DNA of 64,000 bases from Tautonia rosea (lineage in GTDB: Bacteria > Planctomycetota > Planctomycetia > Isosphaerales > Isosphaeraceae). This document shows positions 8,842 through 46,063 of this stretch, piece after piece. Location: NCBI RefSeq assembly GCF_012958305.1, contig NZ_JABBYO010000008.1, positions 1 to 64,000 on the forward strand. The letters run 5' to 3'. The translations under genes were made by a program, and so were the position numbers. The notes beneath the pieces were generated by a model that worked only from the letters and a program-made list of their open reading frames with translations, was not told the origin of the DNA and ran no database searches. How positions within the stretch are numbered: the first letter of the stretch is position 1; each line of letters starts with the position of its first letter.

Positions 8842-8967
8842 GTTCGCCGAAAATCGCAAGACCGGATGATTCACGGGCACCAGGGCGGGCGGTGAGGTAG
8901 ACTGGGGCGAGGCGAGGCGCAGGTAAGGCGAAACAAAGGCGGCGGTCGGCCCCGGAGTGCGTGGAGG

Positions 8968-25874: not shown

Positions 25875-25937
25875 GGCAGGAACCTCGATCGTCAGGACGA
25901 AACACGACAGCGGATCAACGGGCGAAGCACAGCCGCC

Positions 25938-26720: not shown

Positions 26721-26795
26721 GGGAGCCTCGGGACCAGAAGAACGCTCGGGAGATCCGTCGGGAGGACCTCGACGGCAGGCAAAGGGAGGATGCGG

Positions 26796-27062: not shown

Positions 27063-27100
27063 CAGTTCATCCTCGACGGGTGAACAATTCTGGGAATCTT

Positions 27101-28521: not shown

Positions 28522-28637
28522 CGTGCGCCGGTCGGTTCGGGGGAAAAACGGGCGGGGATGTCGCGATCGGGCGATGAAGACCATGATTGATTCGCGTCGT
28601 GCGGGCTCCGGTCGCTCGGCATTCTTCGACGATCGTT

Positions 28638-28695
28638 CGGCCCCCTCACCCGGCCTTGCGGGCACCCTCTACCCGGTGGGCGGGGGAGAGGGATG
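28638..28695. repeat. second copy of the GC-rich palindromic element
   Basis: CCCCCTCACCCGGCCTTGCGG...GGGGGAGAGGG. Similar to 12878-12986. Confidence 0.35.
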
Positions 28696-28731
28696 AGCAT
28701 GCGTAGGGTCCGTCGTGCAGGAGGTACCCTA

Positions 28732-29298: not shown

Positions 29299-30869
29299 GT
29301 GTCTGCTCCCTGTTCAACCCATCGTCGGAGCACGGCCGCGGCCGCGGAGGGATCACTCCTGACCAGTTCTCGGACACGATCGGCCGGGCCAGGAGTGTCG
29401 TCGTCTGGCATGGGAGGCAGATGCGGACGAGACGTGCCGGCCATCGCCGACGAGGCACGCAAGGCGGGCCGACGGCCGGAGAGCCAACCGCTGGCCGCGG
29501 CAATCAAAGCAAGCCCGGCCACGCCTCCGAGCACGGCCGCGGGGACCCACCAGAGGGCAGCTTCCTGGCGAGCCTCACGCACGATCGGGCGCGGCGTGTC
29601 GGGTTCATTGGGCAAGGGTTGCATGAGAATCTGCACACGTCCGAGCGATGTCTCGGGAATCACGTGAGCAATAATCGTGCGCACATAGTCCTCGGTGAAC
29701 GCGACGAAGCGATCAATCGCGTTTTGCTTTGGCTCGCGAGCGTTGAGAAACGCATCGTGCCGCGCCAGGTAGTACGAGGCCGGAACCTTGACCAGCACAT
29801 TCGCCCGAGCGGGAGGCGGCTCGGCGGGGACCGGGCTCGACGCGGCGGGGGGTTCGGAGGCCATCGATTCGGGGGGCGGATCGAGCGACAGCGGGCCGTT
29901 CGGAACCACCTTAACGATCATCGACGAGGAGGGGGGAGCGGGCGAAGCGAGCGGAGTCGGCTGAAACGTAGGGGCGTCCTCGTCGATCGTGGGGACGACC
30001 GGCGCGGGAGGATCGGAGTCGATCGGCGTGTCGAGGCGAACCTCAACCAAGGCGCCGTCGATGACTGGGGAGAGCTGTTCGGCAATGGCCGCTTCCCAGC
30101 TCCGGGCCAGGGCTTCGGCTCTCATGCTGCGGGCGAAACCGGGGTCTCCGGCCTTGAGCAAGGCGTCTCCCTGGGCGTCAATGATGGTCACGTCGTCGGC
30201 CTTCAACTGGGTGAAGGTGGCGATGACGTTGAGCACGCGATCGACGGTGGTGGGTGAGAGGGACCGGCTGCGATCGGCCCGGAGATGGACCCCAGCGCGG
30301 GCGGCTTCAGGTCGGGCGAAGGGGCGGCCGGGTTTCGGCATCAGGACGACGACGGCCGACTGGATGCCGGGGATTTCCTCCAGGGCACGTTCGATTTTGC
30401 GGGCCTCGGCGCGGAGATGGATCTCGGTCCGTTCGGTGGCGTCGGCCATGAGAGGGGGGCGAGTCGGGTCTTCCACTTCCTGAATCAAGGCACGGCGGCT
30501 CAACCCGAGCTGGTCGAGCACCTTGAGCGCCTCGGCGAGACGGGCGGGAGGAACGGAGACGCGACCCCGGTCATCGGCCTGAGCGTCGATTCCCTTGAGG
30601 GCCAGCTCGTTGAGCAGGGCCTCGGCTTGATCGGGAGGAAACGCTCGACCCTGATCGAGCCACTCGGTCTGATCGGCTTTGGGGGTGAGCAGCGACGAGG
30701 AGACCAGGGCAACGATGGCGACGAGAATGGCGAGCGCGGCCACGCGGTAGGGGGCCTGCTGTCGATCGCGGAGCCAGCCTGAGAGCCCCTTCAGCCGCTC
30801 TCCCAGCCGACGCCTCCCGGACCCCGGGGCTGATCTGGCCCCGCCCGGCTCGCGATCTTCGCTCCGCAT
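29295..30869 (-). CDS. fliF: flagellar MS-ring protein FliF
   Basis: 524 aa. N-terminal TM, YscJ/FliF ring-building motifs (IQSAVVVLMPKPGRPFARPEAARAGVHL, DDVTIIDAQGDALL) and a C-terminal TM. Confidence 0.8.
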   Translation of the reverse strand: MRSEDREPGGARSAPGSGRRRLGERLKGLSGWLRDRQQAPYRVAALAILVAIVALVSSSLLTPKADQTEWLDQGRAFPPDQAEALLNELALKGIDAQADDRGRVSVPPARLAEALKVLDQLGLSRRALIQEVEDPTRPPLMADATERTEIHLRAEARKIERALEEIPGIQSAVVVLMPKPGRPFARPEAARAGVHLRADRSRSLSPTTVDRVLNVIATFTQLKADDVTIIDAQGDALLKAGDPGFARSMRAEALARSWEAAIAEQLSPVIDGALVEVRLDTPIDSDPPAPVVPTIDEDAPTFQPTPLASPAPPSSSMIVKVVPNGPLSLDPPPESMASEPPAASSPVPAEPPPARANVLVKVPASYYLARHDAFLNAREPKQNAIDRFVAFTEDYVRTIIAHVIPETSLGRVQILMQPLPNEPDTPRPIVREARQEAALWWVPAAVLGGVAGLALIAAASGWLSGRRPALRASSAMAGTSRPHLPPMPDDDTPGPADRVRELVRSDPSAAAAVLRRWVEQGADT

Positions 30870-31236: not shown

Positions 31237-31845
31237 TCAGCGGGTGGTGCCGAACAGCGAGGAGCCGAGACGGCCGTAGGCGCTGGGGACAACCGGGGCC
31301 TCGGGGGCGATGTCGGTTTCCTCAGCAGGAGCCGGCTCCATCATGCCAGGAGCGGCAGGAGCAGCCTGGCCGGAGCCGTAGGCCTGGCCGGTGCCATAGA
31401 CAGCGCCGGTGTACTGAGCGGTCGGGGTGACGAGACCCTGGCCGGTCGGGTAAACGGCGTGGCCGTAGTCAACGACCTCAGGGGCGCAGCCCTTGTTGTG
31501 GTGGAGCATGCCGAGCAGGCCGCCACCAACGCGCTTCTTCTTCAGAACCCACTCGTACTCGTAGCACTTGGGCGGGATCTTGGGCAGTTCGATCTTCGGC
31601 AGGCAGATTTTCGGCAGGCTGATGTGGGGGAGCTTCAGCCCACAGTGCTTGGGGGCCGGAGCGCAGACATCACCATATCCCTGGGCCGTGGGAAGAACAC
31701 CCTGGCCGCTCGGGGCAACGTGCTGCGGAGCAGCCACAACCTGCGGAGAAGGCATCAGGCCGCCGTGGCCGCCAGCCAGGGCAACGCCACTCGTGGAGGC
31801 GAGAGCGAGGGCCAGGCAGACGCTCAAGGTCAAAAGCTTCGACAT
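31237..31845 (-). CDS. secreted repeat protein, hypothetical (LPKI repeats)
   Basis: Signal peptide MSKLLTLSVCLALALASTSGVALA. Short repeats KLPHISLPKICLPKIELPKIPPK, Gly/Gln/Tyr-rich. Codon usage differs from its neighbours, with more GTT/GCT/CCT/CTT codons. Confidence 0.45.
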   Translation of the reverse strand: MSKLLTLSVCLALALASTSGVALAGGHGGLMPSPQVVAAPQHVAPSGQGVLPTAQGYGDVCAPAPKHCGLKLPHISLPKICLPKIELPKIPPKCYEYEWVLKKKRVGGGLLGMLHHNKGCAPEVVDYGHAVYPTGQGLVTPTAQYTGAVYGTGQAYGSGQAAPAAPGMMEPAPAEETDIAPEAPVVPSAYGRLGSSLFGTTR

Positions 31846-32450: not shown

Positions 32451-34277
32451 TTACCGTCGGGAGGCGGGTTCGACTTGCTCATCGTGTCGAAGATCGGCCG
32501 AGGCCGACGCGAGCCCCTCGGCCGGATCGACCCGGAGCAGGATCAGCTCGTTGCGTTGGAGGTCGGGTTCGCGGTAGAGCTCGGTAACCTTGCCTTGCAA
32601 GGAGGGAGAGAAGCGATCGTAGACGCGGTCGCGGATCAGCATGTAACTGGTCGAGCGGTCGGGGTCGGCAATCCAGCCGAGCAGGGTATTCAGATCGCGC
32701 TGGATGCGAAGCTGAGGGTCTTCGATCAAAAGGCCGCGCTGGGCTTCCATGAACAGATCGTGCGCGTCGTTGGTTTCGGGCTGACTGCCGGGAACCGGGG
32801 CCAGGTTTCGATCGCGGAGATAGAACCAGAGCCCTTCATCCAGCTCGTGAAAGAACATGACGGTGGTCTGGTCTAGCGGAACGATCCGCTCGATGGTTGC
32901 GGCTAGCGGCCGATGACTCTGGTTCGAGACGACCGGCCGAGCAATGGCACCATAGATGATCAGCACACTGCACGACACCGCCCCGGCGATCGGGGCCAGC
33001 GCCATGCCTTCGGCTCCTCGACGCCAGGCCCAGGCCGAGCCGATCACTCCGATACTGACGACCACGGCCAGGCCCACCGCAGGAGTGACGAGATCGGGCA
33101 TGCGCTGCGAGAGCACCACCGGAGCGGCACAGGCAATGACGAACAGAGCCACCCAGGTCGTCTGCAACATGAGCCTCGGGCCGAAGGCTCCGGTCCGGGC
33201 CGCTCGGGCGAGGCGGACCCATTCGGATCCCGCCAGAAGGGCCACGGCGGGCAGACAGGGGACGTAATAGTTGGGTTTGGCCACCGACCAGGTGCTGAAC
33301 ATCAAGAGATTGGCGAAGGCCCAGAGCCAGGCGAACCAGATGGTCGGCCGGGTCGATCGCCCTTTCTTCGTGAACGGGAGGACCAGGGCCATCAGGGCCA
33401 AGGGGGTCCAGGGCATCGCCATCCAGAACCACTCGGCGGCCAGCGGAGTTCGGCGGCCATGATGCGTGACGCCGGCCGATCCGACCTTCTGGCCGATCTC
33501 CAGCCACCAGACGCTCAGGGCATCAAACCGAGCCACCAGCACCGGGACCGGCCAGCAAAGGCAAAGCCCCAGCATCAGGAGGATGCCTCGCCAGTCGGCC
33601 AGCGAGCGCACTCCCGGACCGAAGCGTCGCGAGAGCATGAGATAAGGCAGGACCGTCAGCCCGACCAGGACAAGAATCACCGGGCCTTTGGTGAGAAACC
33701 CGAGCCCGATCGCCGCGTACATGACCAGCGTCCATCGGGAGGACCCCCGCTCGTCGGCCGGCGCGGCCAGCTCGGCTCCCTCGCGATCACCGTGCAAGCG
33801 TCGCCAGGCGGCGTAGAGCGCGAGCGTGGTGAAGAAGGCGAGCGGGCCGTCGTTGCCCGCCTGACGGTGCTCGGTGATCACATAAAAGGTGGTACAGTAC
33901 GCCAGTCCCGCGGCAAGGCCGACCGATCGACCGCCGAGCCGACGGCCCAGCCCGTAGACGAGCAAGGTTACGCCGACTGCCGAGAGGGCCGAGGGCAGCC
34001 GGACCATCAGCTCATCGCTTCGGCCACTCACGAGCATCAAACTGGCGCTGACCCACCGGGGAAGGGGAGGCTTTTCGAGCCGGGGGCGACTCTGAATATC
34101 GGCGATGAGCCAGTGGCCGTGCTCGACGGTGTCAAGCGCCTCGGCCGCGGCTCGTTGCTCGCGTTTCCCCCAGAGATCGACCGCGCCGAGCAACCCGAGA
34201 AAGGTTGCCAGGGATGCAAGAGCCAGAACCGCCTCGGGCCCTCTCGAACGGATCCAATGCGAAAAACGAAGCGGCAT
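32451..34277 (-). CDS. GT39 family glycosyltransferase (ArnT / PMT_2-like, polyprenol-phosphate-sugar dependent)
   Basis: About 608 aa polytopic protein. WGKREQRAAAEALDTVEHGHWLIADIQSRPRLEKPPLPRW is the ArnT/PMT periplasmic-loop signature (DE...KPPL). Confidence 0.7.
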   Translation of the reverse strand: MPLRFSHWIRSRGPEAVLALASLATFLGLLGAVDLWGKREQRAAAEALDTVEHGHWLIADIQSRPRLEKPPLPRWVSASLMLVSGRSDELMVRLPSALSAVGVTLLVYGLGRRLGGRSVGLAAGLAYCTTFYVITEHRQAGNDGPLAFFTTLALYAAWRRLHGDREGAELAAPADERGSSRWTLVMYAAIGLGFLTKGPVILVLVGLTVLPYLMLSRRFGPGVRSLADWRGILLMLGLCLCWPVPVLVARFDALSVWWLEIGQKVGSAGVTHHGRRTPLAAEWFWMAMPWTPLALMALVLPFTKKGRSTRPTIWFAWLWAFANLLMFSTWSVAKPNYYVPCLPAVALLAGSEWVRLARAARTGAFGPRLMLQTTWVALFVIACAAPVVLSQRMPDLVTPAVGLAVVVSIGVIGSAWAWRRGAEGMALAPIAGAVSCSVLIIYGAIARPVVSNQSHRPLAATIERIVPLDQTTVMFFHELDEGLWFYLRDRNLAPVPGSQPETNDAHDLFMEAQRGLLIEDPQLRIQRDLNTLLGWIADPDRSTSYMLIRDRVYDRFSPSLQGKVTELYREPDLQRNELILLRVDPAEGLASASADLRHDEQVEPASRR

Positions 34278-34952
34278 CGTGACTCGCCCTCCCTGGCCGT
34301 CGCAGACGCTGCTCAACCTGCCGCCCGGCGACACGGCGCGGCGCGGGCTGGTCTCTCGAATGATGTTTGGTGCACCATAGCCCAAGGCATCGCGGCCGAC
34401 AAGGGGAACCCTCTCGGCAAGGACGATGGGGATTGAAGCGGTCGGGAAATCGAGTGTCAGTAAAGTACCCGACCCGCTTGGCCTGACTCACATTGCGTCG
34501 ATTCGAGAAAAAAAACCGGGAATGCCAGGCAATCGGCCCGTGTTGACAGGGTTGCGGACCTTCGGGTATATCCCAGCCCCAATCAACTTGATGTGCGATT
34601 CGCGAGTCATCGTGCCGCAATCGCCTCTCAGGTTGACGACGTCCGGACCCTTCACGTCGACACTCGCTTCGGTGTGCTGGGGGTTTTTCGAGGCGTCGGA
34701 AGGACGCACGGATGCGATGGCAAGGGGGCATCAACGGGCACAGGGATGGCCCGGCCCCCTTGCATCACGACGCGTGTACACGTCTTTCCTCGGTCAGCCA
34801 ACGGGGAATGTTTTGGTCCGACGCACCGCTCCCCGTTTGTTTTTTCCGGAAGCGATCGATTGCGTCGAGCGTCTGTGATGATCGCCCATCCCGGCCGGTC
34901 CCGACGCACCCGAGGCCGAATCACACGTCCGCCATGGAAGGGGGATGGCCCC

Positions 34953-36353
34953 ATGCGGCTCGCCATGACCAGGATCGTCGCGCCACCCCGTGCGCCTCAC
35001 CGTCGGTTCGTTCGCGAGCGCACCGAAACGCAACCGCAACCCCAACCCCGATCGCCAGGACTGTTTCCTGGCGAGCCGGAAACCTGCCGACGGAGCCTCC
35101 GGCACTTTTTGCCGGTGATGCTTCAGCTTGGTTTGCTGGTTGGGCTTGCAAATGTGTACAACCTTGAAGGTCGGGGCTTCCACCTCTTGCTGGCGATCGC
35201 AACCGCGGCCCTCCCGATTCATTACGCCCTGCCATTTCGCTGGAAGAAGCCGTTTTTCGTGGGCGCTTCGATCGTGGGGCTTGTCTGGGTCTTCGGCGCG
35301 TCGACCGCAGTCGTGGTCTTGCCGATCGCACTGGGTCTGATCGGCCTTTGTCTGGCCCCCCTGCCCTGGCAGGCCAAGGTATTGGGGGTGCTTGGGGTCG
35401 GGGTTGGGCTGGGCCTGATTCAGGCGGGGGTAATCGAGTCGAGCCTGCCGTCGCCGGTGCTGCCCATTCTGGGAACGATGTTCATGTTCCGGCTCATCAT
35501 TTTCCTGTATGAGCTGAAGCATGCCCAGCAGGCCGAACCAACCAGCGATGTGCTGAGCTATTTCTTCCTGCTGCCAAATTACTGCTTTCTGCATTTCCCG
35601 GTTGTTGACTACCGGACCATGCAGCGCGGCTATTTCTCGGGCGAAGTTCACGCCGTGCAGCGCGATGGACTGAAGATGATGCTCAGGGGATTCGTCCACC
35701 TGATGCTCTATCGGTTCGTCTATCATGAATTGTTGATCAGCCCTGAGCAGGTGGCCGGACCCGGCAGTCTGGCACGATTCCTCACGTGCAATTATCTGCT
35801 CTACCTTCATGTCTCAGGGCAGTTTCACATCGCGTGCGGCATGCTGCATCTGTTCGGCTTCAAGCTGCCTGAGACGCATCATCATTATCTGCTGGCGACG
35901 AGTTTCACCGACTACTGGCGCCGGATCAACATCTACTGGAAAGACTTCATGGTCCGCGTCTTCTTCAATCCGGTGGCGTTCCGCTTGAAGCGCCGACCGC
36001 AGTGGCAGGCCCTGGCCGCGGCAACGACCGTGGTGTTTGTCGCCACGTGGTTCTTGCATGCGTACCAGTCATTCTGGCTGAGCGGTTCGTGGCACTTCAG
36101 CGTGCCGGATGCCCTGTTCTGGAGCATTCTGGGCGTGTTTGTGCTGATCAACGTGCAGCTTGACGCCCGGCGATCGCGGGTCCGCCGCAAGGCGAAGACA
36201 ATCCCTTCGACCTCGGCCCGAGTGCGGGGAGGACTGGTCTGGTCGGCCAAGGTGTCGGCGACATTCGTGACGATTGCCTTGCTCTGGTCGCTCTGGACCA
36301 GCCCGAGCCTCGATGCCTGGCTGGCGATGCTTCGCCGGGGGATGGGGTCGTGA
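34953..36353 (+). CDS. MBOAT family membrane O-acyltransferase (DltB/AlgI-like)
   Basis: Polytopic. MBOAT hallmarks FTDYWRRINIYWKDFMVRVFF (FWRRWHI-like) and conserved His in LHLFGFKLPETHHHYLL. Start uncertain (ATG at 34953 or 35118). Confidence 0.7.
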   Translation: MRLAMTRIVAPPRAPHRRFVRERTETQPQPQPRSPGLFPGEPETCRRSLRHFLPVMLQLGLLVGLANVYNLEGRGFHLLLAIATAALPIHYALPFRWKKPFFVGASIVGLVWVFGASTAVVVLPIALGLIGLCLAPLPWQAKVLGVLGVGVGLGLIQAGVIESSLPSPVLPILGTMFMFRLIIFLYELKHAQQAEPTSDVLSYFFLLPNYCFLHFPVVDYRTMQRGYFSGEVHAVQRDGLKMMLRGFVHLMLYRFVYHELLISPEQVAGPGSLARFLTCNYLLYLHVSGQFHIACGMLHLFGFKLPETHHHYLLATSFTDYWRRINIYWKDFMVRVFFNPVAFRLKRRPQWQALAAATTVVFVATWFLHAYQSFWLSGSWHFSVPDALFWSILGVFVLINVQLDARRSRVRRKAKTIPSTSARVRGGLVWSAKVSATFVTIALLWSLWTSPSLDAWLAMLRRGMGS

Positions 36354-37543
36354 ATGAGAACCTTCCCCCCCCCGCTCGCGCCCCGGAGCCTCGATCCTCT
36401 GCCCCTCGCGATGCGATCATGACGGTGAATCGTCCCTTGCTCTGCCAGTTCGCGCTAGCCGCCGCCCTGCTCTGCTGGGGGCTGGCACCCGAGGAGTTTC
36501 GTCCCGAGGCAGCCGAATCGCTCTTGCTTGCCGGCAAGAATACCGCCGACCTCGACCGCATGGAGGCCGGTTACTATGAACACCTGCTTGATACGGGACG
36601 ACGGCTCGACGGCGAGACTCTTGTTTCTTCTCCGCCCAAGCCGCCTCCGTTCAAGGTGACGGACCTGGCGCGGCCGGTCGACGATTTTCGAGAGTGTGTC
36701 CTTGAGCCGTCGTTCACGACGATTTTTCAACAGGCGCGATGGACGACCAATGCCCTGGGTCTGCGAGACCGGGAATACGAAGCACAAAAGCCGGAAGGAA
36801 CCTATCGAGCGGTTCTGATCGGTGATTCGATCGGCGTCGGCTGGGGCGTGCATGACGGCGAAGGCTTCGAACCGAGGCTGGAAAAGGCACTCGATACGCA
36901 ATCCTCGACGGTCGGCGGGCCTCGGATTGAGATCCTCAACCTCTGTGTTCCGGGTTATGCGCCGGCCCAACGGCGAGAGCATCTGGAGCGGCTTGGCTGG
37001 TCGCTCGATCCCGATCTGGTCATCGTGCAGGCGACCGCCGCCGACCTGGACTGGGACGAAGGGCGGCTTCGGCGCCTGCTTTCTGCGGGGTATGGCTGGG
37101 AGATTCCTATTTATCAAGATGCCATCAATGCCGCCGGCCTGAAGCCGGGTGCCAGTTCGTCGAGCATCAAGAAGGGGCTGGAGGCGCAGCAACTTCGAAT
37201 CCTGAGCGATGTGTATCGGGCGCTCGGCTCCGATTGCAGTCGCCGAGGGGTTCCGGTTGTCTGGATCTTGCTGCCTCGCGTGGGACGGTCGGTCAGCGCG
37301 ACCGAGCGACAGACCCTGGTTGACCTTGCGAAGGCCTCGGGGTTCGATCCGGTGCTCGATCTCTCCGACGCCTTCGACGGCCTCTCCCCCGCAACTCTGG
37401 CGATTGGCCCGAACGACTACCACCCGAACGCCCAAGGGCATGCGATCCTCGCCCAACGCCTGGAGGACGCGCTGGCCAATCGGCCGGGTGCCCCCTGGAC
37501 CCAACCGAGCCGGCCCGGATCGGCCGGGGGAGCCGCACACTGA
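36350..37543 (+). CDS. SGNH-hydrolase-like protein (DltD/AlgX/AlgJ-like), paralogue 1
   Basis: N-terminal TM/signal anchor, GDS block AVLIGDSIGVGWG, and C-terminal DxxH (NDYHPNAQGHAILAQ). Overlaps the MBOAT stop by 4 bp. Confidence 0.55.
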   Translation: MNENLPPPARAPEPRSSAPRDAIMTVNRPLLCQFALAAALLCWGLAPEEFRPEAAESLLLAGKNTADLDRMEAGYYEHLLDTGRRLDGETLVSSPPKPPPFKVTDLARPVDDFRECVLEPSFTTIFQQARWTTNALGLRDREYEAQKPEGTYRAVLIGDSIGVGWGVHDGEGFEPRLEKALDTQSSTVGGPRIEILNLCVPGYAPAQRREHLERLGWSLDPDLVIVQATAADLDWDEGRLRRLLSAGYGWEIPIYQDAINAAGLKPGASSSSIKKGLEAQQLRILSDVYRALGSDCSRRGVPVVWILLPRVGRSVSATERQTLVDLAKASGFDPVLDLSDAFDGLSPATLAIGPNDYHPNAQGHAILAQRLEDALANRPGAPWTQPSRPGSAGGAAH

Positions 37544-38784
37544 TGACCCGAAACCTCACCGTACGAGCCCCCTTGCTGTCGGCCCTCCTGCTTTCGGCCG
37601 CGCTGCTCGCTGTCGGCCTGATTGACTGGCCGGCGGGTCGAGCACGATCGGCCATGCAGTCGCTGCGATCGACCGAGGGCAACAACGCTGACCGCGACGC
37701 CAACGCCGGCGGGTACTATGAGGGACTCATCAACCGCGGTGATCCCGAGGACCGGGCCTCGGATGAAGTTGCCTTGCGATTGCTGGGGAAGCCCGGCCGC
37801 TGGGTGAGCTTCCACGATATGGGGGCCACGCACTACATTCCCGATTCGTTCATTCAGTTCCAGCTTTATCCGAACATTCGCAAGCCGGTGTTCGATCATG
37901 AGTTCACCACAAACGAGCACGGCCTGCGCGATCTGGAAGGCTATCAGGTCGCCAAGCCTCCAGGAACGTTCCGGATCGTCTTGCTCGGCTCGTCGATCGA
38001 CATGGGCTGGGGTGTCGACGTTTCAGAAACGTACGAGAACTGGCTCGAAGAATGGCTCAATGCCCGGGCGGTGAAGATCGGGCTCGATCGCAAGTTCGAG
38101 GTGCTCAACTTCGCCATGGCCGCTCACGGACCAGCGCAACGCCTGGAACGGTTCCGCACCTTCGCGAGCACTTTTGATCCTGATCTTGTGCTCTACTCGG
38201 GAACGATGCTCGACCCGAGGCTCTCGGAGATCCACCTTTGCGACCTCCTGCGCTATCGAGCCGACCCGACGTACGACTTTGTGCGGGCGGTGCTTGAGGT
38301 CGCTGCCCTGACCGACGACGATCTTGCGCTGACCTCCGAGGGCCAGCTCAAGCGCCGAGGCCGCCTGAAGGCGAAACTGGCGCCGCACCTCTGGACGGTC
38401 GGCGACGGCGCGGTCGGCATGCTGGCCGCCGAATGTCGATCCCGGCGCCTGCCCTTGGTGTATCTGATCATTCCTCGGGCCGGCCTGTCGGATCTTCCCG
38501 GCAACCGGGACGAAGGAGTTTATCGGCATCAGGAAATGGCTCGTCGCCACGGCATTCGTTTAATTGACCTGACCGGAGCGTTCGACGACGAGGATCCCTC
38601 GTCGCTCGCGCTCGCCCCCTGGGACGACCACCCGAACGCCGAAGGCCATCGGTTGATCTTTCTCGAACTGGCCCGAGCCCTCGTGGCGGATCCCGAGCTT
38701 TCGATGCTCTTGCTCAATGCCGAAGGCGGTGGGCGTCTGTTGACGGCTCACCCGCTCGATGAGTTCGATGACTCGCATCCGTAA
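37543..38784 (+). CDS. SGNH-hydrolase-like protein (DltD/AlgX/AlgJ-like), paralogue 2
   Basis: Same architecture as the upstream gene: signal anchor, IVLLGSSIDMGWGV, WDDHPNAEGHRLIF. Collinear similarity to paralogue 1 (YYEHLL/YYEGLI, LGLRDRE/HGLRDLE, PDLV). Confidence 0.55.
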   Translation: MTRNLTVRAPLLSALLLSAALLAVGLIDWPAGRARSAMQSLRSTEGNNADRDANAGGYYEGLINRGDPEDRASDEVALRLLGKPGRWVSFHDMGATHYIPDSFIQFQLYPNIRKPVFDHEFTTNEHGLRDLEGYQVAKPPGTFRIVLLGSSIDMGWGVDVSETYENWLEEWLNARAVKIGLDRKFEVLNFAMAAHGPAQRLERFRTFASTFDPDLVLYSGTMLDPRLSEIHLCDLLRYRADPTYDFVRAVLEVAALTDDDLALTSEGQLKRRGRLKAKLAPHLWTVGDGAVGMLAAECRSRRLPLVYLIIPRAGLSDLPGNRDEGVYRHQEMARRHGIRLIDLTGAFDDEDPSSLALAPWDDHPNAEGHRLIFLELARALVADPELSMLLLNAEGGGRLLTAHPLDEFDDSHP

Positions 38785-38907
38785 TCGTTACCAATCGACC
38801 GAAGCGGCCGGGGTGGCCTGCGTCTCGCTCGCACCGGCTTGACCGCCTTTCGATCACATCTGCGGCTCGTGACCCTTCCTGTGATGACCGTCAAAGGACT
38901 GACGACC

Positions 38908-40626
38908 ATGCAACCTCACCGAATCGCTCCACCACGGACCACCAGCGAACGTTCGACCTCGGCTCCGACCGGTTCTTCGATTCGCTTCCATCCCGATCGC
39001 CGGATCGATACGGGACATTCCGCGCACCGGCCGGCGCTGGCTCCTCGGGAGACGATCCACCTGGCCCAGTTGCTCGATCGCGCCGCCAGCCGATGGCCTG
39101 ATCGGGTCGCGGTCGAGACCGAAGACGGTCAGACGATGACCTATGCCCAGCTCGACCACGCCGCCGATCGGCTCGATGCCCGCCTGGCGCGTTATGGTGT
39201 GGGCCGAGGGGACCGTGTGGGGGTGATGCTGCCGAAGTCTCGGGAAGCTGTCGCGGCCATTCACGGCATCCTTCGTGCGGGGGCTGCCTATGTACCGGTC
39301 GATGCCACCGCTCCGGTCGCCCGGGGAGCCGGGATTCTGGCCGACGCCTTCGTCAAGACGATCGTGATCCATGCGTCTCTGGTCGCCTCCCTGCGCAACG
39401 CCTGGCCCGGCCCTGGCCCGCTGCCCAAGTTGATCGTTGTGGGAGAGACCGGCGACGACGATTGCGCGACCTGGGACGAGGTGATGGCCGACGAGGCTCC
39501 CACGCCCGATCCGTCCCCTCGGTTCGATGGCGATGTGGCATACATTCTGTATACCTCGGGATCGACCGGCACGCCCAAAGGGGTGACCCTGACGCATCAG
39601 AATGCGTTGTCGTTTCTCGACTGGTGCGTCTCGACGTTCGGCCCCGAGCCGGGTCGACGCTTTGCCTCGCATGCGCCGTTTCATTTCGATTTGTCGGTCT
39701 TTGATCTCTACGCCTCGTGCCGGGCAGGGGGAACGCTTGTTCTTGTGAGCGAGGCGATGGGGAAAGACCCGGCTCGGCTGGGCGATTTCCTGGCCGAAGG
39801 TCGGATTGACGTCTGGTATTCTGCGCCGTCGATTCTCGGCCTGCTGGCCGAGTTCGGCCGCCTCGATCGCCCGGAATTTCACGCGCCGTCGCTCGTGCTG
39901 TTTGCGGGAGAGGTGTTCCCGATCACGCAGCTCAAGCGGCTTCGGAAGCTCTGGCCATCGGCCACGCTCTGGAACCTTTACGGGCCGACGGAGACGAACG
40001 TTTGCACGGCGTACCGGATTCCCGCCTCGATCAACGACGACCGGACCGAGGCCTTCCCAATCGGCCCGGTCTGCCCCCCGCTTGAGGCGCGAGTGGTGGA
40101 TGAGCAAGGCGACGACGTTCCCGAAGGAGACGAGGGGGAGCTTCTCATTTCCGGGCCGGGCGTGATGCGTGGTTACTTCGGGCGCGATGATCTGACGGAA
40201 TCAGCCTTCATGGAAGGCCCCGACGGCACCCTCTGGTATCGGACCGGAGACCTTGTCGCAGACCAGGGCGGCGGTTGCTTTGCCTATCACGGGCGTCGCG
40301 ACCGGATGGTGAAGAAGCGAGGCTACCGGATTGAGCTGGGAGAAATCGAGGCGGCGCTCGATCGCCTCGACGGCATCTCCCGAGCCGCGGTGGTTGCCGT
40401 ACCGGGCGACGCCGGTCTGACGATCACGGCGTTCGTTGCCATGAAACCGGGGCAGAAAGGCTCAATCATCGCGGTCAAGCGGCATTGCACCGCGCACTTG
40501 CCTGCCTACATGATTCCTGATGCCATCCGGTTTCTGCCCGCTCTGCCGTCAACCTCGACGGACAAGATCGACTATCCCCGGCTGATGGCGATCGCCTCAG
40601 GCGAGGCCTCGTCCGAGGCGGCCTGA
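38908..40626 (+). CDS. stand-alone adenylation (AMP-binding) enzyme, DltA/AlmE-like, no carrier domain
   Basis: Adenylation core motifs: A3 YILYTSGSTGTPKGV, A5 NLYGPTETNV, A7 YRTGDL, A8 GRRDRMVKKRGYRIELGEIE, A10 PALPSTSTDKIDYPRL. The ORF ends after A10 with no LGGDSL/PCP motif. Confidence 0.75.
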   Translation: MQPHRIAPPRTTSERSTSAPTGSSIRFHPDRRIDTGHSAHRPALAPRETIHLAQLLDRAASRWPDRVAVETEDGQTMTYAQLDHAADRLDARLARYGVGRGDRVGVMLPKSREAVAAIHGILRAGAAYVPVDATAPVARGAGILADAFVKTIVIHASLVASLRNAWPGPGPLPKLIVVGETGDDDCATWDEVMADEAPTPDPSPRFDGDVAYILYTSGSTGTPKGVTLTHQNALSFLDWCVSTFGPEPGRRFASHAPFHFDLSVFDLYASCRAGGTLVLVSEAMGKDPARLGDFLAEGRIDVWYSAPSILGLLAEFGRLDRPEFHAPSLVLFAGEVFPITQLKRLRKLWPSATLWNLYGPTETNVCTAYRIPASINDDRTEAFPIGPVCPPLEARVVDEQGDDVPEGDEGELLISGPGVMRGYFGRDDLTESAFMEGPDGTLWYRTGDLVADQGGGCFAYHGRRDRMVKKRGYRIELGEIEAALDRLDGISRAAVVAVPGDAGLTITAFVAMKPGQKGSIIAVKRHCTAHLPAYMIPDAIRFLPALPSTSTDKIDYPRLMAIASGEASSEAA

Positions 40627-40665
40627 CGGCGGGGGCGTCTTCCCTGGACTCCGGAACGTTCCGAG

Positions 40666-41712
40666 GTGCTCGTGCGGCTGATTCCCGGTCACCTGACGAG
40701 CTGGAAGCCCTGGTATTACCGGGCCTTGATCCCGGCACTGCGGCGGCTTGGCCCCGAGCAGTCGGATGCCGTCCTGGAATCCCTCGGCCGTCTCGTGGCT
40801 CGCTCGCCGTACCGAGCCCGGCGGATCGCCGCTCGACTGGCCGACGCTCGCGAAGGGCTTCAGGCCGACTGGGATCTCGACGCGGCCCGACGGGCGCTTG
40901 CCGGTAATCTCGCGCGGTTCTCGGCGCGTGATTGCCTTCTCTCCGGGCTGTCGGACGAGGCCGCCCTGAGCCGGTTCGACGTGACTGGAGCCGAGCACCT
41001 TGATACGGCGATCGGATCGGGATCGGGCCTGATCCTGCTCGGGTCGCACTTCGGCGCCTACCTGGCGGCAATGCACTGGCTCGTCCGTCGTCGGGTCCCC
41101 TTGCGGATGATGCTGCAACGTCCCCACCATGTCTCCGATGAGCTGTCACGCTGGTTCGACCTGGCTGGAACGCTCGACGACCCGAACGGCCTGCCCCGCC
41201 ACCCGCAATCGGCCTTGTTTCTGAGACGAGCCATGCCGTCGGGAGACGGGGTGTTGCGTGTGCTTCGAGCGCGATCGGCCCTGGTCGAGGGCCTGGCGGT
41301 CTTGATCAACGGTGATGTCGCCTGGGACTCCCGCTGTGCTCGACCGGGTCGATTGCTCGGGCGTCGGGTCCAGATTCAGTCGGCCTGGGCCGATCTGGCC
41401 GTGGTGACGGAGGTGCCCGTCGTACCGATCTTTTGCTCGCACCGGCCCGCGGGGCGATTCGCGATGACGATTGATCCCCCCTGGTGGATCGCTCCGGGGA
41501 GTCAGCAAGACGCGGTAGACCACTACCTTGCGCGACTCGACGCCATGATTGCGAACGAACCGGCCGAGGCCATCTCGCATCTCCTCTGGCCGACCGATGA
41601 TCGTCCGAGCATCCCCGGCCCTGCTGCCCCTCGGCTGCGATCGACCGCCCCGGGCATCCCCTCCCGAACAATCGAGCAGACGACATCCGTGCGCAGGCTC
41701 CCTGGAGCCTGA
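40666..41712 (+). CDS. LpxL/HtrB-family (lipid A biosynthesis-type) acyltransferase, AlmG-like
   Basis: GSGLILLGSHFGAYLAAMHW matches the lauroyl/myristoyl acyltransferase family block (G.ILL..H.GN.E.). Size 348 aa. Confidence 0.55.
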   Translation: MLVRLIPGHLTSWKPWYYRALIPALRRLGPEQSDAVLESLGRLVARSPYRARRIAARLADAREGLQADWDLDAARRALAGNLARFSARDCLLSGLSDEAALSRFDVTGAEHLDTAIGSGSGLILLGSHFGAYLAAMHWLVRRRVPLRMMLQRPHHVSDELSRWFDLAGTLDDPNGLPRHPQSALFLRRAMPSGDGVLRVLRARSALVEGLAVLINGDVAWDSRCARPGRLLGRRVQIQSAWADLAVVTEVPVVPIFCSHRPAGRFAMTIDPPWWIAPGSQQDAVDHYLARLDAMIANEPAEAISHLLWPTDDRPSIPGPAAPRLRSTAPGIPSRTIEQTTSVRRLPGA

Positions 41713-41764
41713 ACATGCCCGTGACGGAGGGAACGCACGAGCCGACCCTTGCCGGCGGATCGAC

Positions 41765-43510
41765 TCAGTGGGGCCTGGTTTTCGAGGCGAGCCGGGTGCG
41801 GTCGGGCCGCAGTTCGAGGGCAAGCATCCGATCGGGCTCCCCTTTTCTCGGATGGATCGACGTGGCGCGATCGAGCAGGCGCACCCGTCCCAGATGCTCC
41901 AGATCGTCGAGAATCCACTGCGGACCCACGACGTAAACCCGTTCCTCGTCCGAATCGAACTCGATGACGAGCCGATCCGCAAACGACGCCACATCATCGT
42001 GTCGCCGAACCGGAATGGGCAGATAATAGGTGATCTGGGGATCAGGAATCCCGACGACCGAGAGATCGGCGTCGGGAGGCAACTCGGCCGAGAACCGCGT
42101 GGCCAGCTCCGATTGCCCGCGATAATCGTCGACCTCGGGCATCGCGAGCGATTGCACCAGGACAAAGGCTCCCCAGACCACCGCGAACGTGCCGGCAACG
42201 GCCGCTCGGGGCTGACCCGCGTGCCAAAGTCGATCGGTGATCGTCAGCCCCAGGCCGACCAGCGTCGCAATACTCGCCCCGGCCAGGGGCAATCCCGACC
42301 TACCGCTCGCGGCAAGGCCAAGCACACCCACGATCCCGAGAAGGCCAAGCAACGGCATGGTCAGTCGGGAGATGCGGGCGATCGGCCAATGTCGGAGACG
42401 ATCGGGGATCGCTCCGGTCATGATGCGAATCAGGCCAAGCGCCGCCCAGATCGACAGCGGAGGCAAGGCCGGAATGATGTAGTGCTTGTGCTTCCAGGCC
42501 GAGAGGGAAAGCACGAGCATCATGCCGAAGGTCCAGCAGAGCAGGAACCGCCCTCGAGGATCGCTCGTCTTCTGCGCTCGAACGGACTTCGCGTGGGTCA
42601 AGGCTCCGAAGATCGCCAAAGGGGTCCAGGGCAAGGCGAGCCAGGCCGAGGTGTAGCCATAGAACATCGGGTCCTTGCCACCGCCGCCCAGATCGCCGCT
42701 GAAGCGTTCCACATTGTGCCGCCACCAGACATCGAGCAGGCCCGGTTCGCGAAGCATCGCCGCCGCCGGCCAGGCAACGACCAGGGCCAGCATGACCATC
42801 CAGCCGATGGGGTCGAGGAGCAATCGCCAGGCAAGCCACTTGCGTTCCGCGATCGCAAACAGGCCGCTGCCCACGGCGACCAGGACCAGGCCGACCGGCC
42901 CCTTGACCAAAAACGCCAGGCCCGCCGCCCCGAAATAGGCCAGACGCCAGCCGATCGGAGGCCGGTCGCCGTTGCGATCGAGCACGCCGGCCGCGAAGGC
43001 CGCCATTGCCATCGTCACGATGGCGCAGAGCATCATGTCTGCTTCCGCCAGCCGCCCCTGCATGAACACATAGACTGAGCTGGACTGAATCAGACCCGCC
43101 AAGAGGCCGACGCGGTCGCCATACCAGCGAGCCGCCAGCCAGGCGATGACCAGACTGGTCAGGACGGCCGAGACCATTGCCGGAAGCCGAGCAGCCCATT
43201 CGGCCTCGGTGTCGAAGACGAGCAGCGAGGCGGCGATCGACCAGTGCATCAAGGGGGGCTTGTCCCAGATTGGCATCCCCATGATCCGGGGAACCAGCCA
43301 GTCGCCCGATTGCAGGAATTCCCGCGCGGGTCCGGCAAAGTTCACCTCATGGAAGGTCAACGCCCAGGGCTGACCGAAATTGACCAGCAATAACGTCAGA
43401 CCATAGAACGCGACGACCAGCGCGGAACGGACGGAAAGGGGGTCGGTCGACGTCGAACCGACCGAGGGTAAGGTCTTCGAATTAGCAATGACCGCAGAGG
43501 GTTCCATCAT
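41765..43510 (-). CDS. GT39 family glycosyltransferase (ArnT / PMT_2-like), second copy
   Basis: FAGPAREFLQSGDWLVPRIMGMPIWDKPPLMHW plus about 12 TM helices. Confidence 0.7.
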   Translation of the reverse strand: MMEPSAVIANSKTLPSVGSTSTDPLSVRSALVVAFYGLTLLLVNFGQPWALTFHEVNFAGPAREFLQSGDWLVPRIMGMPIWDKPPLMHWSIAASLLVFDTEAEWAARLPAMVSAVLTSLVIAWLAARWYGDRVGLLAGLIQSSSVYVFMQGRLAEADMMLCAIVTMAMAAFAAGVLDRNGDRPPIGWRLAYFGAAGLAFLVKGPVGLVLVAVGSGLFAIAERKWLAWRLLLDPIGWMVMLALVVAWPAAAMLREPGLLDVWWRHNVERFSGDLGGGGKDPMFYGYTSAWLALPWTPLAIFGALTHAKSVRAQKTSDPRGRFLLCWTFGMMLVLSLSAWKHKHYIIPALPPLSIWAALGLIRIMTGAIPDRLRHWPIARISRLTMPLLGLLGIVGVLGLAASGRSGLPLAGASIATLVGLGLTITDRLWHAGQPRAAVAGTFAVVWGAFVLVQSLAMPEVDDYRGQSELATRFSAELPPDADLSVVGIPDPQITYYLPIPVRRHDDVASFADRLVIEFDSDEERVYVVGPQWILDDLEHLGRVRLLDRATSIHPRKGEPDRMLALELRPDRTRLASKTRPH

Positions 43511-43688
43511 GCGGCCAACCATGCCTCTCACCCATCCCTGTTCCGAAACTCAATCGGTTCCTCCGATCGGGCAATCTGCTCGAACACGGGGGAATCCGCC
43601 ACCTGAAGCACTCTCGATCATGACCGCAACCTTTTCCATCGACAAGGGTGCGACAGCACTTGAGGCGATTGGAGGCGGTTCGCTCGCC

Positions 43689-44978
43689 TCAAGACGGATC
43701 CATCTCGTCGTTGGTGCTGCCAATCCCCAGGCATCGGGGAAGCCAGGCGCGGGTCGATCGGCTCGCGGCGATCAGGAAGGGAACCTTGGGTAAGGCGGCC
43801 ACCATGCGGAGGTCGTCGGTCAGCGTGCTCCGGTCGCTTAAAAAACGGACCAAGGGGTCGGCGTCCACCCCGTCGAACATCCGAGCGAACAAATCGGGAG
43901 CGCGGGAGGGTCGATCAAGGAGCGCCCGAAGGAACACGGCGTCAAAGAAATCATATTTCCGATCGGCGATTGGTGCATCGAGCCGTGCGCGGGTCGATCT
44001 GTTGCCCGCGATCTGTTCCGCGATCCGCCGACACTGCCGCTGGATCCGGACGAAGGCATACCCGCTGGATGGCCTCGCCGCTCCTCCAGCCAGGCCAATC
44101 GGCACGATCCGGGCTCCTGGCGCGGTGTTCGGCCGATGGGTTGTCATGGGAATGCGTCCGGCTTCTTCTTCGATCACCTCGTACCGCTCGACGTCGAAGC
44201 AGCGATCGAGGTAGGAGGCAATCTCCTCTCGGTGTCGACTCGCCGAAACCGGATCGGGAAAGAGGTACGTGTTCTCGACCAGCGCTTCGCGATCGGACAG
44301 TGGAAGGACATAGACGAAATGAGGCCCATCCGACTGATCGACACGGAAGTCCATAAGGATTGGACAGGCGGGATCAAACACCGAGTGCTCGGTCCGAACC
44401 GTCTGGCCGAGGAAGTGCTGGACCATGGCGGCCTCTCCCGAACGCGCGGCTTCGGCCAGGGCTGCCGGTCGCCGAGCACTGGTATAGGCCCGGACACCGC
44501 GAATCGTCTCCTGAGCCAGATCGACCGCAACGGTCTCGGCTTCGAGGGTCGTCGCTCGGATCGACGCGCCGAGGTACGGGTCGATCGCGTCGTCCCCGGC
44601 CAGGCGATCGAGAATGCGGCGGTAGACGTCGATCGACCGCAAGCGTCGGTATCGGTAGCGCGTCGACTGCGATTCGATCCAGTTCCCCCGCTCATCCACG
44701 ACGGCCCATCGAGTCCAGGCGTGGGTGGCGAGGTCGTCAAAGGGGGTCGGCTCCACATCCCAGTAGCACCAGGTACGGTCGTTCGCGTACCCCGGCCGCC
44801 GATCGACCAGCGCCATCGACCCGCGATCGCCGAGCGACCGCAAGTGCCAGGCCAGGCTCAGCCCGGCACATCCGGCTCCGAGGATCACATGATCGTAGGT
44901 CGTCGTCGACGGCCGCGGCGTTCGGTGCCGGGGCACGAGGATCGAGTCGCGGGAATCACTGATCGCGGTTTGGGGCAT
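43689..44978 (-). CDS. crtY: lycopene cyclase family protein (CrtY/CrtL-type, FAD-dependent)
   Basis: Rossmann motif YDHVILGAGCAGLSLAWHL at the N-terminus. Lycopene-cyclase family blocks (RTWCYWD, FVYVLPLS, ENTYLF). Start set at the ATG at 44978. Confidence 0.65.
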   Translation of the reverse strand: MPQTAISDSRDSILVPRHRTPRPSTTTYDHVILGAGCAGLSLAWHLRSLGDRGSMALVDRRPGYANDRTWCYWDVEPTPFDDLATHAWTRWAVVDERGNWIESQSTRYRYRRLRSIDVYRRILDRLAGDDAIDPYLGASIRATTLEAETVAVDLAQETIRGVRAYTSARRPAALAEAARSGEAAMVQHFLGQTVRTEHSVFDPACPILMDFRVDQSDGPHFVYVLPLSDREALVENTYLFPDPVSASRHREEIASYLDRCFDVERYEVIEEEAGRIPMTTHRPNTAPGARIVPIGLAGGAARPSSGYAFVRIQRQCRRIAEQIAGNRSTRARLDAPIADRKYDFFDAVFLRALLDRPSRAPDLFARMFDGVDADPLVRFLSDRSTLTDDLRMVAALPKVPFLIAASRSTRAWLPRCLGIGSTNDEMDPS

Positions 44979-44992
44979 CCTGGGTGGACTGA

Positions 44993-46063
44993 TCACGACC
45001 GCACCTCCCCTGCCCTCGGCCGATCCCAGACCGCCTGCATGCGGTCCATCCCCAGCACGACGATGACGTGAGGCAGTGTCAATGCGCTGACCATCGCCAA
45101 CGCTGCCAGGCCGAAATCGGCCACGTCTCCGGTTCTGGCTCGCACGAACCACCAAAGGCCCCCCATCATGGCCAGGGCGATCAACGTGGTCGGCAGGGTG
45201 GAACGATGGAACCGGGCCAGTGCGGTGAGCCATTGGCCGGCACGGGCCGCCGATCGGGTGGGCTCGGCCACCGGCAGCAAACGCACGACATGCCGAACCG
45301 AATGCCAGGCATTGAAATAAACTCCCATCGCCAGAACCGGCGGCACGACCGAAAACAGGACGACCAGCAACGCCGAACCCGCCGCCTCGCTCAGCGCAAC
45401 GGCTCGGCGATCGGGACGTCGCCAGGCTTCCACGGCGAGCGTTGCCAGATGAAAAGCAACGAGAAGTCCCACCGCGACCAGACCGGCTTTCCGAATCGAT
45501 TCCGGAATGGCCCAGCGGGCCGAATCGCCAAAGAGACGGCCGGTGAGGGCATTGGCCGCCTCGGCGAACATGGCGTCGAAGACCAGCACCGGAAGGGCGA
45601 TGGGCACCACCCCCCGAACCAGAAGCAGCAGCACCGACCGCCAGGCCGGCCATTCGCCGGTGTGGTCAGGCGAATCATCTCCCTCGACTTGCAGCCCGAA
45701 CCGGTCGACTCGGCTCCAGTAGAGATCGCCCTGGCCAAAGTGGAATGCTGCCACGACCAGAAACCCAATCAGAGCCGCCATGGGCGCGATCCACCAAAGC
45801 ATCAAGACAACCGCGATTGCCCCCAAATACCCCGCAAGAAACCCCAGGCCGCCCGGCGACCGATCGCTCTCGGTAGGAATCCGATGATCGAGCGCTCCGT
45901 GGGGAATCCCGAACACGAGGAGCCCCACCCCCCAGGGTGCCCACTGCACCGCCGGCCACTCGGCAACCTCAGGGGCAAGTGCGACCAGCCCCAGCGCAGC
46001 GGTACAGGCCAGAATCCCTGGAACCGATGCCATCAGGCTCATCGACGCAGATAGATATGACAT
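44993..46063 (-). CDS. blh: Brp/Blh family beta-carotene 15,15'-dioxygenase (retinal synthesis)
   Basis: Polytopic membrane protein with conserved His clusters FGIPHGALDH and AAFHFGQGDL, typical of Blh/Brp. Adjacent and divergent to a rhodopsin gene. Start set at MSYLSASM (46063), because the annotated upstream start lies inside a tandem repeat. Confidence 0.65.
   Translation of the reverse strand: MSYLSASMSLMASVPGILACTAALGLVALAPEVAEWPAVQWAPWGVGLLVFGIPHGALDHRIPTESDRSPGGLGFLAGYLGAIAVVLMLWWIAPMAALIGFLVVAAFHFGQGDLYWSRVDRFGLQVEGDDSPDHTGEWPAWRSVLLLLVRGVVPIALPVLVFDAMFAEAANALTGRLFGDSARWAIPESIRKAGLVAVGLLVAFHLATLAVEAWRRPDRRAVALSEAAGSALLVVLFSVVPPVLAMGVYFNAWHSVRHVVRLLPVAEPTRSAARAGQWLTALARFHRSTLPTTLIALAMMGGLWWFVRARTGDVADFGLAALAMVSALTLPHVIVVLGMDRMQAVWDRPRAGEVRS

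Follow-up and report, generated by a model that had tools for sequence, protein, structure and literature searches.

A split MBOAT/SGNH acyltransferase operon with a predicted proline-activating enzyme in Tautonia rosea and its likely origin in a fused acyltransferase cassette

What does an operon do that places a transmembrane acyltransferase, two membrane-anchored esterase-like proteins, an amino-acid adenylation enzyme and a lipid A-type acyltransferase side by side, with no carrier protein gene among them? The question is raised by a 64 kb stretch of DNA from the planctomycete Tautonia rosea (hereafter the window), whose proteins we searched with Pfam and NCBIfam hidden Markov models (HMMs). 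An earlier note on this DNA had described the locus as a merger of dlt, alm and arn parts between two GT39 glycosyltransferases (here GT39a and GT39b). All seven open reading frames (ORFs) that it named are found where it placed them, although it spoke of six genes and listed seven. Five of them lie on the plus strand: a divergent membrane acyltransferase of the MBOAT fold with 466 residues (34953-36353), two SGNH paralogues with N-terminal membrane anchors (SGNH1, 36350-37543, and SGNH2, 37543-38784), a stand-alone amino-acid adenylation enzyme predicted to be proline-specific (38908-40626) and an acyltransferase of the LpxL/PatA family (Lip_A_acyltrans; 40666-41712, protein WP_169977499.1). 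We find that the note was right in kind, this being an uncharacterised envelope acylation locus without a carrier in cis, but that it mistook the ancestry and probably the substrate as well. The locus represents a variant form of an MBOAT/SGNH relay of the Dlt kind, and it comes from a widespread cassette that joins a proline/pyrrole trio of parts from non-ribosomal peptide synthetases (NRPS) of type II to a transmembrane acyltransferase. As far as the searched open-access literature shows, such a locus has indeed gone uncharacterised.

The reading of the five plus-strand genes as one operon holds, as the same five-gene set recurs in dozens of Isosphaeraceae genomes. Scanning GTDB with a single genome for each species gave over 532 loci. 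We examined the best 80, all of them Isosphaeraceae-like; as full loci we count the 43 that exceed 20 kb and hold the adenylation gene. Comparison of gene neighbourhoods, a check that the earlier note had proposed, finds the MBOAT gene at every one of these 43 and the LpxL-like gene after the adenylation gene at 42, a gene arrangement far from chance. The MBOAT orthologues are about 60% identical across the family. Variation does occur: at some loci the SGNH gene is single, several genomes carry extra MBOAT and SGNH pairs in unrelated contexts without an adenylation or LpxL-like gene, and in T. sociabilis the LpxL-like gene lies on a different contig from the MBOAT-SGNH-adenylation block, directly after a GT39 gene. 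The 0-4 bp overlaps once claimed for the whole operon are present at the MBOAT/SGNH1 and SGNH1/SGNH2 junctions but not further downstream, where 55-123 bp precede the adenylation gene and 39 bp precede the LpxL-like gene. Several starts bear on these figures. The MBOAT ORF opens with GTG at 34593 and its orthologues begin at ATG 34953; SGNH1 possibly starts at ATG 36419; and the adenylation ORF opens with TTG at 38839, its likely start being ATG 38908, 123 bp past SGNH2 (the N-terminal extension is conserved in Tautonia). Promoter and terminator scans returned no more sites than shuffled sequence did, and an Rfam scan of the whole window, in which a riboswitch ahead of the adenylation gene would have been a clue to substrate, gave no hits.

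The ancestry of this operon can be traced through its MBOAT. A profile of the window MBOAT family, run against 1.84 billion representative proteins (clusters at 50% identity), gave 1813 hits at E<1e-3, of which 722 had E<1e-30. Because 1813 is far below the number expected had the profile reached canonical MBOATs, we treat the family as a separate clade. Among the best 150 hits, 113 are MBOAT-SGNH fusions of 800-950 residues, matched at E values of 1e-115 to 1e-157, and these fusions carry the hallmarks of the window proteins: the RRIN motif, the His, LWSLW, the GYYE linker that follows the membrane helices, the SGNH Ser and D-x-H-P-N. A metagenome scan for the fused family covered 80 loci (L089-L168). 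In 66 of them the fusion has beside it a carrier of 81-90 residues with the motif GGILDSLATLKLV, and in at least 42 a stand-alone adenylation enzyme about 50% identical to that of the window; an acyl-CoA-dehydrogenase-family gene follows the adenylation gene directly in 45. The carrier profile matches type II peptidyl carrier proteins (PCPs) best in the PDB, PltL and PigG included, ahead of DltC. On NCBIfam models the dehydrogenase reaches 449 bits with PigA and 416 bits with RedW, the latter a model for L-prolyl-PCP dehydrogenase; both values fall below the equivalog cut-offs, yet these are its top two families. The same four genes stand, unannotated, on the 1.39 Mb plasmid pMVF16-2 of the alphaproteobacterium Microvirga sp. 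VF16 (L169; NZ_CP069356.1, 702291-718513). Soil metagenomes commonly contain this cassette; in the literature searched we found no description of it.

Since PltF/PltL and PigI/PigG/PigA form the established route from L-proline to a pyrrolyl-2-carboxyl thioester on a carrier (PMC7723355; PMC6667630), we predict that the parent cassette makes pyrrole-2-carboxyl-S-carrier and hands the acyl group to its MBOAT-SGNH fusion. The parallel extends to the full PltF/PltL/PltE trio, to the RedM/RedO/RedW set and to the window itself, whose adenylation code matches that of PltF at nine of ten positions, with relatives that have a PltL/PigG-like carrier and a PigA/RedW-like dehydrogenase (PMC7723355; PMC6667630). 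The known trios, however, feed a polyketide or a soluble ester-forming acyltransferase of secondary metabolism, whereas here the partner is a transmembrane MBOAT-SGNH protein, and the window lacks both carrier and dehydrogenase. We have little doubt that the core of the window operon derives from the fused cassette: the two share the RRIN, His, LWSLW, GYYE, Ser and DxH motifs and adenylation enzymes with near-identical codes. In the derived state the fusion is split into an MBOAT and two SGNH proteins, the carrier and the dehydrogenase are lost from the operon, and an LpxL-like gene is gained. A merger of dlt, alm and arn parts, as the earlier note had it, is thus not how the locus arose; its core descends from a fused MBOAT-SGNH, PltL-like, PltF-like and PigA/RedW-like cassette.

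A further variant of the cassette was seen at one locus (L088, 8001-14474). Immediately downstream of its fused MBOAT-SGNH lie an 86-residue PP-binding carrier and an AMP-binding enzyme, a fatty acyl-AMP ligase (NF006624, 324 bits), together with a 636-residue protein that weakly resembles STT3. From this set, the relay would seem to exist in a fatty-acyl form as well.

The adenylation enzyme has an AMP-binding domain (286 bits) and scores 361 bits on TIGR01733, above the cut-off of that model. Its 120 database orthologues are all stand-alone proteins of about 525 residues with AMP-binding domains only. Like the window enzyme, which had rightly been described as ending just past motif A10 without a PCP, they stop 10-20 residues after the A10 lysine and contain no PP-binding domain. 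We read the ten specificity positions by motif anchoring, in the GrsA-PheA numbering, and read the codes of PltF, PigI and DltA off printed PDB alignments. All 121 orthologues share the window code, DLFYLALVCK, unchanged. It matches PltF (DLLYLALVCK) at nine of ten positions, PigI (DLFYIAWVCK) at seven and Bacillus subtilis DltA (DLMTMCTVAK) at four. The PltF code is identical to the consensus of the fused cassette, where it is found in 36 of 42 enzymes, and the Phe that the window has at position 239 recurs in PigI. Searched against the PDB, the pocket segment places PltF (E 2e-29) and PigI (E 3e-24) at the top, ahead of the DltA enzymes, and an Ala sits where DltA has Cys-269, the residue with a role in D-selectivity (PMC4176424). 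The label DltA-like therefore does not hold: the protein gains 296.8 bits on TIGR01734 against a cut-off of 559.85, and its pocket is nearest to those of the proline-specific PltF and PigI. Taken as a code, this pocket makes L-proline the probable substrate of the window enzyme. A link to ornithine lipids was considered and set aside, as the pocket has no acidic residue for ornithine and the paper on OlsHI names no acyl carrier protein (PMC12493201).

The MBOAT is the least recognisable member of the operon. Neither Pfam nor NCBIfam recognises it even at E<10, the MBOAT and LTA_dltB models included, and it has no PDB match by sequence. The fold tells more. An AlphaFold model (mean predicted local distance difference test, pLDDT, 76) matches DltB best in a fold search of the PDB (6bug/8jem, E 9e-6), with HHAT, DGAT1, LPCAT3 and ACAT next. 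All the significant matches are MBOATs; "DltB-like" is thus apt for the fold, but not at the level of sequence families. His369 and Asn326 (in RRIN) are invariant in an alignment of 22 orthologues, the His in every one of them and its counterpart in all 30 fusions compared, and the position and spacing of these motifs mark them as the putative catalytic pair. At the C-terminus an invariant LLWSLWxS replaces the FxYxxF acyl-shuttle motif, the last 90 residues hold no conserved Tyr, and the model shows two extra helices after the helix of the catalytic His, in an arrangement of the PatA type. Between 30 and 45 kb of the window no ORF ends in FxYxxF, as a DltX-like microprotein would.

The two SGNH proteins, 34% identical to each other, match Lipase_GDSL_2 at 37.3 bits (SGNH1) and 37.5 bits (SGNH2), and each has an intact Ser/Asp/His triad and an N-terminal hydrophobic membrane anchor. 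They are predicted to face the periplasm. SGNH1 conserves the GDS serine Ser160, GYYE (Y75/Y76) and D-x-H; in SGNH2, Y58/Y59 of GYYE, S151, D361 and H363 are invariant (29 paralogues and orthologues). A profile search and a two-sequence structure model of low confidence (pLDDT 53) both return generic SGNH/GDSL esterases only, the core being SGNH, and neither protein matches DltD in profile or fold searches. Because the matches are to generic GDSL esterases only, the SGNH half of the description "SGNH/DltD-like" is sound, and the DltD half is valid for topology and role only. The GYYE motif is invariant just outside the membrane in both paralogues and in all fusions examined, and we speculate that it is a candidate acyl-shuttle motif in place of the absent FxYxxF.

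Membership in the LpxL family is confirmed for the last gene of the operon (PF03279, 33.4 bits against a cut-off of 22.3). His128, His137, His155 and Asp217 are invariant, and no acidic residue stands five positions after His128. The best PDB match by sequence is weak (E about 0.04) and is the mycobacterial phosphatidylinositol mannoside (PIM) acyltransferase PatA. A homologue is present at none of the 80 fused-cassette loci, and the same is true of GT39a; the LpxL-like gene is an addition to the cassette that is specific to Isosphaeraceae. By analogy it may transfer an aminoacyl group at the cytoplasmic face as AlmG does (precedent in PMC4278540), or it may prepare the acceptor.

Where, then, is the carrier? 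Searches of all six frames of the 64 kb window found none, either with the E. coli AcpP and B. subtilis DltC sequences as seeds or with an HMM that we derived from 104 carrier sequences belonging to the related cassette, and a scan for the G-x-DS motif found none in the same 64 kb. Two small ORFs at other loci were tried as candidates and rejected: one of 80 residues (L003) is the frameshifted tail of GT39a, and one of 77 residues (L086) is not a carrier. Between SGNH2 and the adenylation gene of a further locus (L075, 14776-14862, plus strand), a 29-residue stretch beginning FLPGRNPKEL resembles the FLPGEDPAEL of the carriers. It could be what is left of a former carrier gene, but the match lacks significance (E 0.65).

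That the system is carrier-less is shown in cis only, for the window and across the family. The Isosphaeraceae metagenome-assembled genome (MAG) CAVUNQ01 has the full operon at one locus (L039) and, at another (L073), a second MBOAT gene divergent from an orthologous carrier (8640-8910, minus strand; HMM E 1.4e-30), with an SGNH gene after it; this locus lacks an adenylation gene, and a third MBOAT/SGNH pair is also present in the genome (L082). A locus from another sample repeats this layout of carrier and MBOAT (L170). The single adenylation enzyme of CAVUNQ01 must serve a carrier whose gene is not in its own operon. In the Isosphaeraceae enzymes the C-terminal (thiolation) subdomain is conserved at 0.84, compared with 0.78 for the core, and retains a GK(D/E)P turn that aligns with the carrier-contact residues of PltF (contacts from PMC7723355), so that the thiolation machinery looks intact. 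The carrier in trans in CAVUNQ01, together with the retained subdomain and contact turn, leads us to favour a carrier in trans in T. rosea too, at about even odds.

The carriers of the fused cassette score 109-131 bits on the NCBIfam model NF052616, "ACP_for_OlsHI" (cut-off 130), and the L073 carrier scores 127 bits. The model and the cassette carriers may be very close families, or the model may capture the cassette carriers. Because of these scores, related planctomycete acyl carrier proteins may exist, and they may lie near the OlsHI ornithine-lipid genes of Singulisphaera acidiphila (PMC12493201).

Putting these parts together, we tentatively propose, at somewhat less than even confidence for the mechanism as a whole, that the locus is the Isosphaeraceae version of the four-gene cassette. 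In Dlt and in PatA/PatB, an MBOAT accepts the acyl group from a phosphopantetheine thioester, on a carrier or on coenzyme A (CoA), and passes it through the FxYxxF tyrosine to the serine of its SGNH partner (PMC12148441). Here the cytoplasmic adenylation enzyme would convert L-proline, as its code predicts, to prolyl adenylate (prolyl-AMP), and the prolyl group would then be thioesterified to a phosphopantetheine thiol, most likely that of a carrier whose gene lies in another part of the genome. The MBOAT, if it works like DltB and PatA, would take the prolyl group from this thioester at His369 and move it across the inner membrane, and the two periplasmic SGNH proteins would esterify it onto an extracytoplasmic acceptor. 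The GYYE tyrosine just outside the membrane could, speculatively, be the shuttle that replaces FxYxxF. The LpxL-like enzyme might draw on the same donor from the cytoplasmic side, much as AlmG acts on lipid A, or might act on the acceptor beforehand. Like D-alanyl and glycyl esters, a prolyl ester would bring in an amine that can be protonated. The best reading is still that an envelope component receives an (amino)acyl group, as the earlier note had suggested; a D-alanine or glycine substrate is not favoured, the code pointing to proline.

A carbohydrate-binding module (CBM_4_9) in some of the fused relatives makes a glycan the probable acceptor in this scheme. The relatives in question are P0341, P0409 and P0450, fusions of about 980-1280 residues.

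Several observations weigh against this proposal. No carrier gene was found in the window or beside 82 of the 83 related Isosphaeraceae loci, and none of these 83 has the dehydrogenase. As this enzyme is missing from all of them, the transferred group may differ from that of the parent cassette; with no dehydrogenase near any locus, it would be prolyl in Isosphaeraceae. The proline assignment is a matter of code identity, with Phe at position 239 in the window against Leu in PltF, and the C-terminal subdomain, searched against the PDB, ranks LgrA first, nearer than PltF. Nothing in the ancestral cassette corresponds to the LpxL-like enzyme, which matches its Pfam family weakly. A pair of MBOAT and SGNH genes from the same clade occurs with no adenylation gene nearby (L084), and an acyl-CoA donor would fit it too. 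The envelope acceptor itself is putative.

Alternatively, the system might need no carrier. The adenylation enzyme might thioesterify proline to CoA or hand off prolyl-AMP, with the MBOAT and the LpxL-like enzyme both using prolyl-CoA. Such a route would account for the carrier missing in cis from the 82 loci and for the lack of a carrier domain in all 121 adenylation orthologues, and the pairs of MBOAT and SGNH genes found alone are in keeping with it. Mycobacterial PatA, the weak best PDB match of the LpxL-like enzyme, uses palmitoyl-CoA. The two helices after the catalytic-His helix of the MBOAT are also those of the CoA-using PatA type, which does not rely on DltX (PMC12148441), and aminoacyl-CoA synthetase activity can be measured for DltA and homologous enzymes (PMC4176424). 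However, both the MBOAT and the adenylation enzyme have their nearest relatives next to a dedicated carrier, and one Isosphaeraceae MAG retains a carrier in trans. We know of no natural pathway that uses aminoacyl-CoA from an NRPS-type adenylation domain for envelope modification, which also counts against this route. We consider it unlikely, though it fares best among the alternatives. A bolder form is somewhat less likely again: a PltF-like enzyme would feed both the MBOAT/SGNH relay and the LpxL-family enzyme with no carrier at all, by way of prolyl-CoA or a direct transfer, giving prolyl esters on lipid A, on an envelope glycan or on both, and in many soil bacteria the parent cassette would attach pyrrole-2-carboxyl to an extracytoplasmic polymer. 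A prolyl ester on any bacterial envelope has, to our knowledge, not been reported.

It is also conceivable that the operon holds two independent modules. The MBOAT and SGNH proteins would then be an acetyl-CoA-dependent O-acetyltransferase like PatA/PatB or AlgI/J/X, and the adenylation enzyme, the LpxL-like enzyme and a carrier in trans would form a lipid modification system like AlmE/AlmG. Same-clade pairs of MBOAT and SGNH genes do stand alone in unrelated contexts, and T. sociabilis has its LpxL-like gene apart from the other block. AlmEFG of Vibrio cholerae pairs a stand-alone adenylation enzyme with a Lip_A_acyltrans-family transferase that aminoacylates lipid A (PMC4278540). PatA/PatB, AlgI/AlgJ/AlgX and WssH/WssI likewise combine an MBOAT that has extra C-terminal helices with a periplasmic SGNH protein and need no carrier in cis (PMC12148441). 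Yet those MBOATs have FxYxxF and use acetyl-CoA, whereas the FxYxxF of acetyl-transferring MBOATs is missing here, the clade showing LWSLW and GYYE instead, and genes for a carrier and an adenylating enzyme are linked to its relatives. In the wider clade most loci link the fusion to these two with no LpxL-like gene; because the cassette pairs adenylation enzyme and MBOAT-SGNH in this way, the ancestral partner of the adenylation enzyme is the MBOAT-SGNH protein. The sister variant that pairs a fusion with a carrier and a fatty acyl-AMP ligase argues in the same direction. The likeness to AlmEFG has limits of its own: the window has no AlmF-type carrier (39 bp separate the adenylation and LpxL-like genes), resemblance to AlmG is at the level of the family (PF03279), proline is predicted where AlmEFG uses glycine, and MBOAT and SGNH proteins are extra. 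Two modules therefore seem to us a doubtful account, just behind the carrier-free ones.

The reading of the earlier note, a dlt/alm/arn hybrid by which lipid A would receive D-alanine or glycine with the help of both GT39 enzymes, is improbable. It draws on general family resemblances, on GT39a as a divergent neighbour at 26 of the 43 full loci and on DltB as the best fold match of the MBOAT. The resemblance to the Dlt system of Firmicutes and to Bordetella dra is real at the level of the relay, in which an adenylation enzyme leads to an MBOAT, a membrane-anchored SGNH-fold protein and an ester on an envelope polymer (PMC12148441; PMC4448142). But in contrast to Dlt, the window has no DltC or DltX gene, its MBOAT is missed by MBOAT and DltB HMMs and lacks FxYxxF, its SGNH proteins are not DltD, and it has two of these paralogues plus an LpxL-like enzyme. 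The code, which agrees with that of DltA at four of ten positions, predicts proline, and the score below the DltA cut-off likewise speaks against a DltA. On the arn side, the ArnT model NF009784 gives 74.3 bits for GT39a and 106.2 bits for GT39b against a cut-off of 567, and GT39b is not conserved, so that ArnT-like fits neither protein; the core, as shown above, comes from a cassette of the PltF/PltL/PigA type. The last suggestion, that the operon acylates a carotenoid glycoside for a neighbouring xanthorhodopsin, is prompted by the lycopene cyclase and rhodopsin genes near the operon in the window, but it is very improbable and not supported, because these genes are missing from related loci (0 of 43 full loci, and none within 10 kb of the operon, the closest relative L004 included), and the SGNH proteins are predicted to be periplasmic.

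Why this system deserves attention is a matter of how few like it are known. Envelope aminoacylation, as in D-alanyl teichoic acids and glycyl lipid A, is a major route of resistance to cationic peptides, with few systems described. About 1,800 clusters at 50% identity hold an MBOAT(-SGNH) acyltransferase of this clade, a large and apparently unstudied family, and in most of the loci examined its partners are enzymes of proline/pyrrole formation that are known otherwise from the making of antibiotics and pigments alone. Were the proposal true, the surfaces of soil bacteria and planctomycetes would bear prolyl or pyrrole-2-carboxyl esters. For the planctomycete version the questions are how the pathway runs without a carrier gene in cis and what its LpxL-family enzyme does, and genetic tools are already in use for Singulisphaera acidiphila (PMC12493201).

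The flanking genes differ in how closely they follow the operon. GT39a (32451-34385, minus strand, divergent from the operon), a GT-C glycosyltransferase, matches PMT_2 at 62.9 bits, and GT39b (41765-43531, minus strand) does so at 60.6 bits, the domains of both being of the generic PMT_2/PMT kind, so that the family calls of the earlier note were correct for both. Present at 26 of the 43 full loci, GT39a is a frequent but not obligatory neighbour. Outside the window GT39b adjoins the operon only in Tautonia sp. JC769 (L004), and since this adjacency is confined to Tautonia it is probably not part of the system. GT39a heads a minus-strand string that continues with a secreted protein of 202 residues (31237-31845), which has a signal peptide and no Pfam hit, and then with flagellar export genes. 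The secreted protein, present at 20 of the 43 full loci, may be associated with the system; it is rich in Cys, Pro and Lys and contains an "LPKI" repeat. Beyond it and a 270-residue membrane protein of Singulisphaera, no small ORF is conserved across the loci. The latter is a multi-pass protein encoded between GT39a and the MBOAT gene of Singulisphaera acidiphila (L001, 8637-9449, minus strand) and found in Singulisphaera and about 15 other loci; it does not occur in the window.

Directly downstream of GT39a and the 202-residue protein, on the same strand, lies a flagellar/type III export set of FlhB, FliR, FliP, FliG and FliF (25089-30869, minus strand); the cluster, marked by FliF, is syntenic with the operon at 19 of the 43 full loci. 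Isosphaeraceae are largely regarded as non-motile. In S. acidiphila a group II intron reverse transcriptase (RVT_1 and GIIM; L001, 3586-5001, minus strand) sits between the fli genes and the homologue of the 202-residue protein. On the other side of the operon, beyond GT39b, the lycopene cyclase gene of the window (43689-45653, minus strand) encodes an N-terminal extension of about 250 residues, and the gene for the bacteriorhodopsin-like rhodopsin (46527-47315, plus strand) is overlapped by an antisense ORF of 305 residues.

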